Source: a virus
Direction: 5' to 3' (one strand)
Length of the DNA stretch: 20,990 bases
Virus record (IMG/VR): IMGVR_UViG_3300025131_000516
Shown: piece after piece, positions 14,889 through 20,986 of the stretch
Layout of the letters: every line of letters begins with the position of its first letter
Numbering within the stretch: the stretch's first letter is position 1
Made by a program: the position numbers and the translations under genes
The notes under the pieces: generated by a model
Databases searched by the model: none
Told to the model about the DNA's origin: nothing
Seen by the model: only the letters and a program-made list of their open reading frames with translations

Positions 14889-14945
14889 TAGAAATTCCCT
14901 TTTTGTTAGTTAAAAAATGGTGCTTTGTTCATTGGCTTTGTACAT

Positions 14946-16487
14946 ACTCATGCCTCCGAGCTATACCGTATAGCTTGTCGTCTCCAAGACGCAGGTGACC
15001 TTTTTACTTTATTCACGCTAAATAAAGGTAGTCTAACTTCGTTCATTAGTTCTATGAGTTAGAACTGATTGCTTATGGGTATGTAAAGACGGTTTGCTCA
15101 CACTTACACCCTTATACTTCTCATATCATCTTAATTGCTGTAAATATCACCCTGAGACTACAGGTTGATGCGATAAGTCTTTGAGAGGATTATTGTTTCC
15201 CTCTTTTGTCCACTAATCTTGCGACTAGTATCCTATCAGACACAATGAGTAACGCTCATCACTCGTAACGGTTAAGTTGTATACACAGTTAATAACTGCA
15301 GTGCAGGTCTGCCGACCGCCTAATGACTTATAAAGCCAACCTGAGCTTTCACCATGAACACCGAGCCTTTCGAGCCCAGATGCACCTCATTGTTTCAGAG
15401 GTAGAGTGTCCTATGCTCTTAACCGTCAACAGACTGTTGATTTTCTTTATTATTATGAATATAGCAGGTATAGCCCGCCAATCTTAATTGGTAAAGAAGG
15501 GTATGGTGAAGGTTGTGCTGTTGATTGTAGACCTCACTCTTTCAAGCAAGTATACTACGACAACCTCCTATACCTATGTTTTGCGACAAACATAAAAATA
15601 TGGTCTTGACAACTATCATCTTATTCTTTCGATAAGATAACATATATCGACTATAAACAGCAACTGCTCGCACACTTATGCCATTTACTATGAGTTCTCT
15701 TATTGGTATTGCTACCTCATCGTACTTTACCCAAGCACAAATACAAGACTTAGCCGCTCAGAGAGACTTAACCGTAGACTTGTACATAACTCATTTGCAT
15801 ACTTAAATACTATAAATAGTATCGCTTATAACACCTCTTTGAGATGCTTCCACTTTATACCTATTTCTAGGTTTATCTAACGACCATATGCGGCCGATTA
15901 CCCGAAGGTAAAACTTGGAAATTTAATACAATGAATGATAATAACCAATGCCCATGATTTATGCTGGTAACTATGACCTAATCAGCGGTTACTGAAGGTT
16001 ACTTGTATTTCTACTCGTATTTCTACTCATTTCACCTTCAGCATACTTACATGGTTATTCCATTCAATGATACTATCATGAGCGGTCTGGTGATAAAATC
16101 ATTATCAACATAGCCTACCCATATAATAAATTTTTTTGGGCAAACTGCGGAAGAGACAATCTGCCCTAAAATGCTTCAACTGATGCAACTGGATGCGCCT
16201 TCACGATGGATAGGGTTTCCCAGGGGTCAAGATGATGCGAAAAATATCACTTAGCACTCTAATGTGTGGAAACAGGGCTATGTACGGGGTTTCCAATTCC
16301 GACTTCACCACCCACACTAAAGTACTAAGATTTTAAACTTTTCCTGGTATTTAAGTTAGTGCCCAGGTTCTATTAAAAGGTATATATATTAGAGATGAAT
16401 GTATGCTCGTATCATATACTCATTTTATGCTCATCTTATACATGAATATGTACTGAATATATATATAGCAGCATTGCTGCTGTCTGT
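14946..16487 (-). ncRNA. Candidate giant structured non-coding RNA region (about 1.55 kb)
   Basis: No credible long ORF in an otherwise gene-dense genome; more than 20 helices, with several GNRA and one C(UUCG)G tetraloop and G-U pairs reading on the - strand. Boundaries are approximate. Confidence 0.6.
16005..16028. repeat. 12-bp tandem duplication GTATTTCTACTC x2
   Basis: Read directly; on the - strand each unit contains GUA-GAAA-UAC. Confidence 0.85.
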
Positions 16488-16862
16488 TTAACCAGACAAC
16501 AGCTTTGCTTTCTTGGACATTTTGCGGTTCATGCCGTAAGACTCACGTGCGTTCTGAATAACTTCCATATCAGCATATAAATCCTTGAAGTCGTCTTGAA
16601 TAGCGTCTTCTAGTGCTAATGCGTCATCTCTGTTCATTTCAGTATGAGCTTGAATCATCACGTTCTCTAGGAATTGCAATACAGCTTTAGCTATCTGCTC
16701 TTCATCCCACGCATACCTGTCTTGCTTACGTACAGCTAGGGCTTGTATGCCTACGCCTAACGCTTGCTTTAAGGACTCAATGCTTATGACTCTGGGAGCA
16801 CGCCACCGCTTAAGAGCACGACCACCCTTGTAGTCGAATGCTTTAAACTTGATTATTGCGAT
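16488..16862 (-). CDS. First early gene, about 124 aa, probably with a non-AUG start (IAIIKFKAFDYKGGRALKRW...)
   Basis: The frame of the track's 63-aa ORF stays open 61 codons further, up to an in-frame TAA at 16865-16863. The first codon ATC lies 8 nt after GGAG. Protein-like composition throughout. Confidence 0.65.
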   Translation of the reverse strand: MAIIKFKAFDYKGGRALKRWRAPRVISIESLKQALGVGIQALAVRKQDRYAWDEEQIAKAVLQFLENVMIQAHTEMNRDDALALEDAIQDDFKDLYADMEVIQNARESYGMNRKMSKKAKLLSG

Positions 16863-17010: not shown

Positions 17011-17040
17011 TTGAAAAGAACCTGGGGATACCCTTAAATT
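17011..17040 (+). promoter_or_regulatory. Putative late promoter TTGAAA-18-TAAATT giving a probably leaderless mRNA
   Basis: The -10-like hexamer ends 6 nt before ATG 17047; no SD sequence in between. Confidence 0.5.
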
Positions 17041-17046
17041 AGATAC

Positions 17047-17253
17047 ATGAAGGACGGTTACATAACATCAAAGCAATTATCTGGCAAAGAAGGTTTAACT
17101 GGAGTAGCTGCTCGTGAGGCTGAGCAAGAAGACCGTGAATTTGATAAAGTTATCCTAGAAATGGCTGCTGAAATACTAAAAGAAAAGAAAGAAAAGAAAG
17201 AAAGTAATATAAAGAAAGAAAAGAAAGAAAAGAAAACAGTTGCTAACAGTTAA
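17047..17253 (+). CDS. Highly charged hypothetical protein (68 aa) with KEK repeats
   Basis: First ORF of the + strand block; C-terminal KEKKEKKESNIKKEKKEKK. Confidence 0.6.
   Translation: MKDGYITSKQLSGKEGLTGVAAREAEQEDREFDKVILEMAAEILKEKKEKKESNIKKEKKEKKTVANS
17178..17235 (+). repeat. Purine-rich low-complexity repeat (AAAG/AAAAG units in two blocks)
   Basis: Two A/G-only blocks separated by TAATAT. Confidence 0.8.
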
Positions 17254-17268
17254 ACAGTTATATGCCTT

Positions 17269-17475
17269 ATGTCTTCAATTTCAATAGAGTGGTTAGCCCA
17301 ATTGCCTTATGAAGAGCAAGAGCGAGTACTCTCTAGGTTAGCTTCTGCGGATGAAGAACTATCCCCAATTGAGATTAATGGTAAAAGGTTTTATATCCCC
17401 ACCGAGGTTATAGGATTGATTGATTCTCTCTGGGCTCAATTAGGAAATACAGACCCCTTCCCTCAATCAGGATGA
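17269..17475 (+). CDS. Hypothetical protein (68 aa)
   Basis: ATGA overlap with the TerS-like start. Confidence 0.7.
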   Translation: MSSISIEWLAQLPYEEQERVLSRLASADEELSPIEINGKRFYIPTEVIGLIDSLWAQLGNTDPFPQSG

Positions 17476-18239
17476 AGTCAAATACCATCAAAAAAAAGGA
17501 ACATTTTGTTTATGAACACATTTCTGAATTTTATAAAGACCATCCTGATATCACCCCAGTAGAGGACTGGAGAGATGGCAAAGAGGGAGATTGGGTATGG
17601 AGTGACGATGGGAATATCCTTCAATTACTCAAAGTGAATAGCATCTCTCATCCAAAAGATTCAAAAAATTATAAATATGCAAAGGGGTATGTTAGGACTG
17701 TTGTGGGTACTTTTATTATAGATTCTAAGAATTTCATGGATTCCGATTTTACAAGACATCCGAATAGATATACTTTCTCTAGAACTATCACTAATCCTAA
17801 TAAAAGAGTAAAAGAAAGAAAGAGCGTTACTAATAAAGAAAAGTTATTTGCTACAAATGTAGCCGTAGGGATGGGTGCAGTTAAAGCTTATATGGATGCC
17901 TATGAAGAGGATTCCCCAGATAAAGCAAAAAGAAAAGCAGTCGTCCTTTTAAAACAGGAGCGTGTAATGAAAGAAGTTGAGAGGGGTGTACAGGATATTG
18001 CTAAATCTTTAGGGATAAACCATGAGTACATCTTAAATAATCTAAAAGTCTTAGCTGAAACATCAGCTGATGAAAATATTGCCCTTCAATCCTTAAAAGA
18101 ACTAGGTAAGGCGATAGGGACTCTAGGAACTGGCGTTAAGAAAATAGAGCAGGGAATTGTCGGAATGTTTCAAGGGTTCTCCCCTGAGCAAATAGAAAAA
18201 GCGGAGAGAAAGATTCTTAGCTCAGGGAAGGAGGTATAA
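17472..18239 (+). CDS. terS: Terminase small subunit-like protein with N-terminal extension (255 aa)
   Basis: 'TNKEKLFATNVAVGMGAVKAYMDAY...AKRKAVVLLKQERVMKEV...GINHEYILNNLKVLAE' follows the Terminase_2 HTH + helical pattern; upstream of TerL. Confidence 0.65.
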   Translation: MKSNTIKKKEHFVYEHISEFYKDHPDITPVEDWRDGKEGDWVWSDDGNILQLLKVNSISHPKDSKNYKYAKGYVRTVVGTFIIDSKNFMDSDFTRHPNRYTFSRTITNPNKRVKERKSVTNKEKLFATNVAVGMGAVKAYMDAYEEDSPDKAKRKAVVLLKQERVMKEVERGVQDIAKSLGINHEYILNNLKVLAETSADENIALQSLKELGKAIGTLGTGVKKIEQGIVGMFQGFSPEQIEKAERKILSSGKEV

Positions 18240-19123
18240 TGGTTTGTCCACATTGTACTTCTATGTACACCAAAAAAGATGGTAAGGGGAAAAGCAAAGA
18301 CAAGATTTTCCAAAAGTTCAAATGTAATTCTTGTCTAAAGTATTTTTCTATAGTCATAGATACTGAAGTAAAAGAATATAATAATCCGACTATTAAGCCT
18401 GGTGAGATTTTTTCGTATGCTTCAGAGGGTGTAATTCGTGTGCATTGCCTTACTGATATCCACGTAGGGGCTCATGAGTTTGATTTCAAGAAGTTTAGTG
18501 AGGCTGTCTCGATAATATCTAAAGACCCAAATGCGGTTTGGTTTGGTAACGGAGATTTAATTGAATTGATTCCTCCTCACTATAAAATATCTCAAAGAGG
18601 ACAAGCAATCCTTCCTGATGACCAGTATCTTGCTTTTCTGAGATTGGTTGCTCCAATCAAAGATAAATGCTTATTTATCCGTGGGGGCAATCATGATTTT
18701 CTCCGTAGTTTTAACATACTAGATTTTGATGTTTGTAAGACTCTTGCGGCTGAATTGAACGTACCTTACTATCAATATCCAGGGTATTCAAGAATTAAAG
18801 TTAAGGAAAAGGAATGGTTTCTTGTTAGTGGACACGGTAAAAGCTGTGCAAAAAATGGCGACCTCGAATTGGATAAATTGGCAGCTGTTTACTCCGAAGG
18901 TGATGTATTTGTACTCGGTCATAATCACCAGCTCTATGCTAAACCTGTTGATTCGATTATGGTTGATGGCGATGAAGAAGCTCTTAAGCGTCGTTGGTAT
19001 GTAAGGGGAGGTTCTTTCTTGCGATACGCTGAGTATGCACGATATTCGATGTATCCTGTCATAAGAACTGGATGGATTACTATGGAGTTTTCTGAGGGTA
19101 AGGTGAAGTGCTGGGAAAATTAA
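18239..19123 (+). CDS. Calcineurin-like metallophosphoesterase with N-terminal Zn ribbon
   Basis: CPHC...CNSC, then LTDIHVG (DxH), GNGDLIE (GD), GGNHD (GNH), SGHG and GHNH. Confidence 0.85.
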   Translation: MVCPHCTSMYTKKDGKGKSKDKIFQKFKCNSCLKYFSIVIDTEVKEYNNPTIKPGEIFSYASEGVIRVHCLTDIHVGAHEFDFKKFSEAVSIISKDPNAVWFGNGDLIELIPPHYKISQRGQAILPDDQYLAFLRLVAPIKDKCLFIRGGNHDFLRSFNILDFDVCKTLAAELNVPYYQYPGYSRIKVKEKEWFLVSGHGKSCAKNGDLELDKLAAVYSEGDVFVLGHNHQLYAKPVDSIMVDGDEEALKRRWYVRGGSFLRYAEYARYSMYPVIRTGWITMEFSEGKVKCWEN

Positions 19124-19255: not shown

Positions 19256-19485
19256 GTAAACATCCAAATAGAAGCCCTATAACAAAACATCATCTTATAC
19301 GTTCAATAAAGGGTTTGGTGAATTGGTCTCAAGTATCAAGTTTAAGACAAGATGATTTAGAGAGGGTCTTCGAGGATTATATCGAGTATAAAAAGGATAT
19401 GAAGGGTTTTAAGAAATTCATAGATGGCAAATATAAACAGCCAAAACGTAAACGAAGCCGAAAAAGCACTACTCCTAGCGAGTAA
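19252..19485 (+). CDS. Basic hypothetical protein (77 aa)
   Basis: Coupled to the upstream gene; overlaps the TerL start by 62 nt. Confidence 0.65.
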   Translation: MSKHPNRSPITKHHLIRSIKGLVNWSQVSSLRQDDLERVFEDYIEYKKDMKGFKKFIDGKYKQPKRKRSRKSTTPSE

Positions 19486-20986
19486 AGATTTAATAGCGTT
19501 TGGTAAACTATTCTTACCAGATGACTTTATGCGCTCTGAGACTCCAGCCTTTCATTACGAGATGGCTGATTCTATTGATGATAAAGAGGTGAAGCAGCTT
19601 GCTATTATCTTACCCAGAGGGCACGGTAAAACTGTCCTAACCAAATGTTCAATCATTAAAGATTTTGCATTTTGCCCTAAAGATGATATGCATTTCTATG
19701 CTTGGGTGTCTGCTACTCAGAAATTGTCAGTAGGCAATATGGATTACATCAAATATCACTTTGAATACAACGAAAGAATAAAGTATTTCTTTGGAAATTT
19801 AAAGGGTAGAAAATGGACAGAGGAAGATATAGAGTTAGAAAATGGCTGCAAACTTATTTCAAAATCTAATGTCGCGGGAATTCGTGGAGGAGCGAAACTC
19901 CATAAACGGTACGACCTCATATGCCTTGATGACTTCGAGCACGAACAAAACACTATCACAGTTGATGCTAGAGCTAAAAATGCTAATCTGGTCACTGCTG
20001 TTGTATATCCCGCTCTTGAGCCTCATACTGGTAGGCTCCGTGTTAACGGTACTCCTGTTCATTATGATTCCTTTATCAACAATCTTATCATTAATTTTGA
20101 ACGTAATAAAAAGAAAAAAGAAGAATTTGCATGGAAGGTAGTCACATATAAAGCCATACTCCCAAATGGGAGTGTGCTTTGGCCTTCGTTTTTTCCATCT
20201 AGTAAGTTAGAAGAGAAGAAGAAGTTTTACAGAGATTCAGGACAACCTGCGAAGTTCTTCCAAGAATATATGATGGAAGTTCAATCAGAAGAGGACTCTG
20301 TATGGAGAAGACAACATATAAAATATTGGGAGGGATTTTATGAAAACGAAGAAGGCGTTAACTATATACATATCGACGGGGAAAAGATTCCTGTTAATAC
20401 GTTCATCGGTTGTGACCCTGCTACTGATATTGACACTAAAGACTCTGATTTTAGCGTTATTATGGTTATCGCTGTGGACGTTAATAATAATCTATATGTC
20501 CTAGAGTATGAAAGACATCGTTCTATTCCAACCATAGGGGCAAAGGGACAAGATGGGGAACCTATAGAAAAGAAAGGTGTAGTAGATTATATTATAGAAC
20601 TTTATAACAAATATCATTGTACATCTGCTACGGTTGAAGATGTGGCTATGAACCGTTCAATTTTCCAGGCATTAAATGATGAAAGAAGACGTATAAATCG
20701 TTTTGATATTGCTGTAATTCCTGAAAAACCAGGGGGGACTAATAAAAGAAACAGAATTTATAGTGGTTTAAGTGGTAGATTCAGTATGGGAACAGTACAT
20801 ATAAGAGAGAATATGTTTGATTTAAGCAACGAAATACTTACTTTCGGCCCTAGAATGGCTCACGATGACACCATTGAAACACTTTATTACGCAAATTTGC
20901 ACTCATTTCCACCTAATTATTCTCAGAATAAAGAGAAAAAGTGGTTTAAACCAGTAAGAAAAGCAAAGAATTGGATAGTAGCATGA
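19424..20986 (+). CDS. terL: Terminase large subunit (complete, 520 aa)
   Basis: Walker A LPRGHGKT, Walker B LICLDDFE, motif III NGTP, FFQEYM, nuclease IGCDPA / DFSVI and HDDTIET. Confidence 0.93.
   Translation: MANINSQNVNEAEKALLLASKDLIAFGKLFLPDDFMRSETPAFHYEMADSIDDKEVKQLAIILPRGHGKTVLTKCSIIKDFAFCPKDDMHFYAWVSATQKLSVGNMDYIKYHFEYNERIKYFFGNLKGRKWTEEDIELENGCKLISKSNVAGIRGGAKLHKRYDLICLDDFEHEQNTITVDARAKNANLVTAVVYPALEPHTGRLRVNGTPVHYDSFINNLIINFERNKKKKEEFAWKVVTYKAILPNGSVLWPSFFPSSKLEEKKKFYRDSGQPAKFFQEYMMEVQSEEDSVWRRQHIKYWEGFYENEEGVNYIHIDGEKIPVNTFIGCDPATDIDTKDSDFSVIMVIAVDVNNNLYVLEYERHRSIPTIGAKGQDGEPIEKKGVVDYIIELYNKYHCTSATVEDVAMNRSIFQALNDERRRINRFDIAVIPEKPGGTNKRNRIYSGLSGRFSMGTVHIRENMFDLSNEILTFGPRMAHDDTIETLYYANLHSFPPNYSQNKEKKWFKPVRKAKNWIVA

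Follow-up and report, generated by a model that had tools for sequence, protein, structure and literature searches.

A long gene-free stretch in a phage genome raises the question of whether it encodes a structured RNA and, if so, whether this is one molecule or several, and of a known class or a new one. We addressed it in the window, i.e. the whole 20,990 nucleotides of DNA analysed (IMG/VR record IMGVR_UViG_3300025131_000516), for which a preliminary description had proposed a non-coding RNA of large size and ornate structure, encoded on the minus strand and possibly of an undescribed class. The overall explanation reached here, in which we place high confidence, is headed by a full-length GOLLD RNA at 15897-15149 (minus strand), carried as an accessory cassette; it is a known RNA class and not the discovery of a new giant RNA.

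The window originates from a marine tailed phage, relatives of which have genomes of ~50-60 kb. Its leftward arm carries ParB-like, Cas4-like, Sak and DnaB genes, and the latter two together with terS and terL (Table 1) place this RNA, as expected for GOLLD, in a phage or prophage. The RNA libraries containing the region were mostly labelled as marine. Searches among cultured phages returned nothing close at the DNA level, a single 67-nt match being due to chance, and only matches of <25% identity with the terminase. The genome-collection search gave one match, a contig of phage origin in the bin of a Dehalococcoidia MAG, with a terminase identical to that of viral contig L034 and without GOLLD; it does not establish the host. 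As the Rfam model of GOLLD represents the 3' half only, homologues were collected in two sets, 80 terminase loci and 110 loci carrying the GOLLD 3' motif.

Inspection of positions 14889-16487 confirmed the lack of any credible gene (the longest start-codon ORFs were of ≤67 aa), and the five hairpins and both 7-mers cited earlier are present on the minus strand as quoted. It should be added that an in-frame ATG is missing from the first leftward gene in the window, L004 and L005; GGAG is located 8 nt ahead of an ATC codon and homologues were called at 125-140 aa, which leaves either a non-canonical start or a shared frameshift.

The Rfam cmscan search assigned 15568-15149 (minus strand) to GOLLD, RF02032, over the whole model (1-416) with 187.7 bits and E 9e-52, at a gathering cut-off of 150 bits. 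The idea of an undescribed class was thus overturned by the very check suggested along with it. Relatives matched the same model, and distant family members aligned to the window over ~15936-15141 only. The profile of the family's 5' half matched 38 other, unrelated GOLLD loci, nearly all of which begin at one model position corresponding to the hairpin 15896-15881. The env-38 construct used for cryo-EM (PMC12286853, supplement) opens, as compared by eye, with the same two hairpins. Based on the Rfam match, the 5' start common to 38 loci and the start of env-38, we assign ~15897-15149 as the full-length GOLLD RNA gene, its boundaries being set by comparison. The length of ~750 nt compares with 724-835 nt in 43 homologues and falls within the typical total of ~700-850 nt; GOLLD therefore accounts for about half of the stretch, which disagrees with a single 1.55-kb molecule. 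As stated before, group I/II introns, RNase P RNA and tmRNA gave no covariance-model or ARAGORN match at E up to 5-10, and neither ROOL nor OLE had a covariance-model match in the window within that range. No conserved sigma-70 promoter was found directly upstream of 15897. Linker and trailer are complementary over 11 bp, a pairing that was dropped from consideration due to a mismatch in L005.

Covariation was evident in both halves of the RNA. In the 5' part, 25 of 31 consensus pairs showed double-sided changes across 26 sequences. Within the phage family, 84% of cells in the 3' domain were paired, a value reached by none of 500 shuffles and exceeding the 38-49% of slid controls, and double-sided change affected 33 of its 54 pairs. 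The collection of homologues proposed earlier as a check, together with the covariance-model match, has thus upheld a large structured RNA on the minus strand. Folding excess over dinucleotide shuffles was confined to two minus-strand blocks, 15525-15897 (z -4.0) and 15930-16345 (z -4.4), and was absent at 16345-16487 (z -0.5), 14895-15148 (z +0.1) and 15149-15524 (z -0.95), the last being the 3' domain, whose pseudoknotted fold escapes energy-based folding. The argument from G-U pairs pointed at the right strand, but through an unspecific bias: 13 coding control windows from the same arm averaged z -1.7 on the minus and -0.8 on the plus strand, one of them reaching -3.7. Since coding controls likewise fold better on the minus strand, this argument is weak on its own, and it is the covariance-model match and covariation, not G-U counting, that fix the strand.

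Table 1. Coordinates of window features, with strand and basis or remarks.
Feature	Positions	Strand	Basis or remarks
Full-length GOLLD RNA, ~750 nt	15149-15897	-	Rfam match, 5' homology to 38 loci, env-38 start
GOLLD 5' cap region, compact env-38 type	15569-15897	-	Covariation; z -4.0; without GGUGG P11b-like hairpin
GAAA hairpin near 5' end	15859-15872	-	Corresponds to bridge B1 donor A34/A35 of env-38; by eye
L10 loop UGCGA	15668-15672	-	Half of L10-L12 kissing pair (bridge B4)
GAAA hairpin, L11a position	15620-15636	-	Alignment; PMC12286853 text
L12 loop UCGCA	15582-15586	-	Partner of L10 (bridge B4)
First arm of Rfam model	15506-15568	-	Loop at B6 donor position
Variable linker, ~60 nt, poorly matched by model	15445-15505	-	No embedded tRNA
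P21a loop (AU in UUAUAA palindrome) and P21b loop GGCA	15310-15338	-	B8, B9 positions; alignment and by eye
GCAA hairpin, L24 position (B10 donor)	15211-15230	-	Rfam alignment, bridge list
Trailer 3' of GOLLD, ~250 nt	14895-15148	-	No folding excess; otherwise only in close relative L005
UUCG hairpin just outside GOLLD 5' end	15898-15911	-	Compensatory changes; L001, L005, L007 only
Module E/F, small closed multi-stem element, optional side hairpin	15935-16060	-	No Rfam match
Window-only segment	16060-16125	-	Replaced in close relatives; in L001 by ~480 nt with 91-aa ORF
Module C, helix around invariant AAACC/GCAUC internal loop, then hairpin	16138-16245	-	No Rfam match
Module B, long irregular hairpin	16250-16329	-	z -3.7
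Module A, AT-rich TATATA tract and invariant 10-bp motif	16360-16391		No folding excess
First leftward gene	16488-16862	-	Stop-to-stop frame of 124 codons; a real protein family without assigned function
Second, divergent copy of 10-bp motif	17017-17026	+	In spacer of sigma-70-like promoter before terminase operon
terS	17472-18239		Window gene
terL	19424-20986		Window gene

By analogy with the solved GOLLD structures, the 5' part of the RNA would fold into a cap and the 3' part into a ring, and roughly 10-14 copies would self-assemble into a hollow, protein-free cage via kissing loops and A-minor contacts; we consider this folding and assembly highly likely. Like other GOLLDs, the window RNA has a variable linker between its 5' and 3' domains. 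Contacts were placed using the published bridge list, with positions mapped by eye onto a machine-read env-38 sequence. Loops aligned and mapped in this way to the B1, B6, B8, B9 and B10 positions are present in the window, and both P21 loops retain self-complementary dinucleotides. Four of the five hairpins exemplified earlier proved to be such GOLLD loops, one of them at L11a and the others at the donor positions of B1, B6 and B10, and the UUCG hairpin lies just outside; the long irregular arm reported at 15500-15574 corresponds to the first arm of the Rfam model. Furthermore, the L10-L12 kissing pair changes on both sides among seven subtypes, the loops being complementary inside each subtype and far less so between different ones (1 of 5040 permutations), so that a contact known from cryo-EM covaries over several sequence versions. 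The fold is thus under selection, as is one contact of intermolecular type, L10-L12.

The GGUGG motif of the P11b-like hairpin (bridge B5), present in standard-type homologues, was absent in all eight family members examined (the window and seven relatives). Such an absence agrees with the variation known for GOLLD, as the RNA of S. agalactiae has no P11a-c and still forms a dodecamer. Bridges B2, B3 and B7 were not located in the window. As judged by alignment, the window RNA has retained the loops by which the published cage is held together, B5 excepted and B2, B3 and B7 not located, and for these same reasons the stoichiometry may differ. Five relatives scored below the Rfam cut-off and are still GOLLD by homology, the loss of a P21 hairpin explaining part of the deficit. 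Natural variants with a single P21 hairpin and scores below the cut-off were seen in L048, L039, L044, L058 and L068; counts based on Rfam consequently miss such members.

The block of excess folding upstream of GOLLD bears on whether the locus encodes one giant RNA of 1.3-1.5 kb, with modules B, C and E/F forming a large 5' extension of GOLLD. The excess folding of this block is on the GOLLD strand (z -4.4, as above), the modules adjoin GOLLD in the window, L001, L005 and L007, and one RNA-library contig spans the 5' end of GOLLD and module E/F. Against this, the modules change places between relatives, occur in duplicate, are split up by an ORF-bearing insert and turn up where GOLLD is missing, whereas six GOLLD-bearing relatives lack them. 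In close relatives the upstream ~500 nt are a mosaic, and modules C and E/F recur without GOLLD and in changed order: the helix of module C, in five sequence variants, occurs in nine distinct relatives, six of which are GOLLD-less, and module E/F is also found in the GOLLD-less L009, L014 and L262. Module B exists in one copy in the window, as two tandem paralogues in L005 and as the second type alone in L007. The 7-bp long-range helix proposed between 16079-16085 and 15754-15760 is a real complementarity, but one at chance level (107 long-range 7-mer complementarities in the region vs 91 in shuffles) and not conserved, its upstream arm being missing in the close relatives L005 and L007. A giant molecule is therefore very improbable. 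It is highly likely that positions 16390-15900 are not part of GOLLD and consist of a site in the DNA with, behind it, structured modules that are small and independent of one another; of the two options in the preliminary description, a cluster of RNAs suits this upstream part. Covariation in module E/F was modest (double-sided change in 4 of 18 pairs). Rfam yielded nothing credible for modules B, C and E/F or for the alternative tenants of the slot described below, and pattern scans for modules C and F gave matches outside the phage family that were mostly due to chance.

Module A is probably a site acting at the level of DNA (operator, promoter or origin). The 10-bp motif forms a divergent pair in ~20 family members, has 39 matches in 59 kb of the region vs 9 in 402 kb elsewhere, and its two copies usually change together between subclades. 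Co-transcription of the RNA with the first leftward gene, as previously suggested, is uncertain, the conserved motif and AT-rich tract intervening between them. In L039, L048, L058, L061 and L068, the leftward copy (e.g. L048 4265-4245, minus strand) coincides in part with 9-mers resembling DnaA boxes; a locus has as many as three or four of these, and an AT-rich tract is adjacent; a replication origin at the motif is possible in this subclade. At the other end of the locus, the trailer contains a near-perfect palindromic hairpin (14967-14951, minus strand) retained in L005.

Transcription might start from the site at 16390-16360, with a longer transcript being trimmed near 15897, to yield an abundant and stable RNA made in lytic growth. 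In each of four studies, contigs of RNA libraries cover parts of 15170-15897; two of the contigs end at 15896-15897, one of these with adapter sequence ten letters beyond, which is a weak hint in agreement with the comparative 5' boundary. One contig reaches 14920 and runs from inside GOLLD through module E/F, and hence a longer precursor is possible. It should be noted that strand, level, timing and ends are not readable from these contigs, that they may contain DNA and that the runs were selected for the region; the little or no cover at 16060-16510 and 17012-18347 is, given this selection, not evidence of silence.

The distribution of GOLLD among relatives is patchy. On the terminase tree it occurs in 9 of 25 family members, which forces at least four gains or losses. 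In L048 and L043, flanks are 94-99% identical on both sides, and the same breakpoints enclose 800 nt of GOLLD in the former vs an unrelated 230-nt element in the latter. As judged from these aligned loci, GOLLD is an accessory cassette gained, lost or swapped at one locus. The leader of the L048 cassette is only ~30 nt long, so the upstream modules of the window are not needed. Such patchiness and clean swaps would also suit a nearly neutral mobile passenger moved by recombination at a hot spot; we find this improbable, since dense compensatory change, including that in loops of intermolecular contact, indicates selection on the fold, and no mobility protein is encoded nearby. The neighbourhood of the terminase genes raises, moreover, a structural role in DNA packaging or assembly like that of phi29 pRNA: GOLLD, a class of multimeric RNA, is located ~1.5 kb from terS, and the 10-bp motif is common to its locus and the promoter region of the terminase operon. 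However, 16 of the 25 sampled relatives, with terminases 79-100% identical, are without GOLLD, which already suggests normal packaging without it, and GOLLD is on the strand opposite to the packaging genes; a packaging role is accordingly quite improbable.

Other elements occupy the place of GOLLD in GOLLD-less relatives. The 230-nt element, with a long terminal closing stem (L043 1965-1735, minus strand; also in L035, L050, L052 and L061), has a multibranched consensus with little variation and no Rfam match in L043. An ORF-free element of ~410 nt was found in the slot in L310 (2830-2410, minus strand) and L314 (2990-2570, minus strand), as well as in L009, L012, L017 and L323; it is 87-90% identical between lineages, has eight double-sided pairs in a two-sequence alignment and no Rfam match. 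In addition, L014 (~730-490, minus strand) and L005 (~6590-6350, minus strand) share a 244-nt non-coding module at 89% identity, followed by a further common stretch of 500 nt in L014 and L306. It is possible, if rather doubtful, that the slot alternates GOLLD with uncatalogued structured RNAs (modules B, C and E/F, the 230-nt element and possibly a ROOL-like 410-nt element) behind a shared DNA motif. If true, its tenants would be new RNA classes doing the job of GOLLD, and natural plus/minus phage pairs and simpler stand-ins would be at hand to study GOLLD without tRNA. Near-identical phages with GOLLD or another RNA at one site mark GOLLD as accessory, and its uncatalogued neighbours merit a separate look.

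What the RNA does was considered in relation to tRNA. Many GOLLDs are flanked by tRNAs or have a tRNA in the linker (PMC12990946), and 37 of 83 motif-matched GOLLD loci in our data have a tRNA nearby. In other phages (L099, L102, L105, L110, L112, L123, L174 and L185), a tRNA ~390-415 nt before the GOLLD 3' end is at the linker position. These associations suit a cage that holds or shields small RNAs, tRNA among them; in this phage the cargo would be host tRNA or the neighbouring modules, which occupy the place of tRNAs in other GOLLD loci. Nevertheless, no tRNA was found in the window or its GOLLD linker, the latter only ~60 nt long, or in the complete genomes of four GOLLD-bearing relatives, where the control was detected in 14 of 14 cases; moreover, the six GOLLD-bearing relatives mentioned above have no modules to store. 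Such genomes are not unusual, since 29 of 38 homologues of this 5' type likewise had no tRNA within ~2 kb. The GOLLD of this family is independent of phage tRNA genes, and its structural selection in phages devoid of these genes weakens phage-tRNA storage as a core role; a cargo function is thus rather unlikely. We tentatively favour, as the leading but far from secure option, an RNA of the lytic phase that would affect the host by drawing off RNA-binding machinery (ribosomes or anti-phage RNases) as a multivalent decoy or sink, and would not serve as a store of phage tRNA. This preference derives from the lysis-linked expression and ribosome pull-down reported for GOLLD (PMC12286853) and from the accessory pattern observed here.

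Among known systems, ROOL (Rfam RF03087) is, like GOLLD, a large cage-forming phage RNA. The 410-nt element of L310 and L314 has four short motifs, in the same order, in common with ROOL env-120, as found by eye. No ROOL match was obtained in the window, L310 or L314. The ROOL family search hit nothing anywhere, not even its controls, and is therefore uninformative, and a pattern search with the ROOL motifs hit the L009 contig only. The GOLLD of Streptococcus agalactiae, a 700-nt dodecamer (reviewed in PMC12990946), is compact like the window RNA and has kept the L10-L12 kissing loop in the absence of some P11 and P21 branches; in contrast, the window RNA retains the P11a GAAA hairpin and both P21 hairpins, and part of its family (the five single-hairpin variants named above) has one P21 hairpin. 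The env-38 14-mer nanocage (PMC12286853, PDB 9MEE) differs from the window RNA in its length (833 nt vs ~750 nt), in possessing the P11b hairpin with bridge B5, in its B8 dinucleotide (GC or CG vs AU) and in having a tRNA-Met upstream, whereas no tRNA is found in the window or the complete relatives. The B4 loops differ in sequence from those of env-38 and yet are complementary. Both RNAs share the same 3' model, 5' start, cap hairpins and marine phage origin, and have in common the loops at the B1, B4, B6, B8, B9, B10 and L11a positions.
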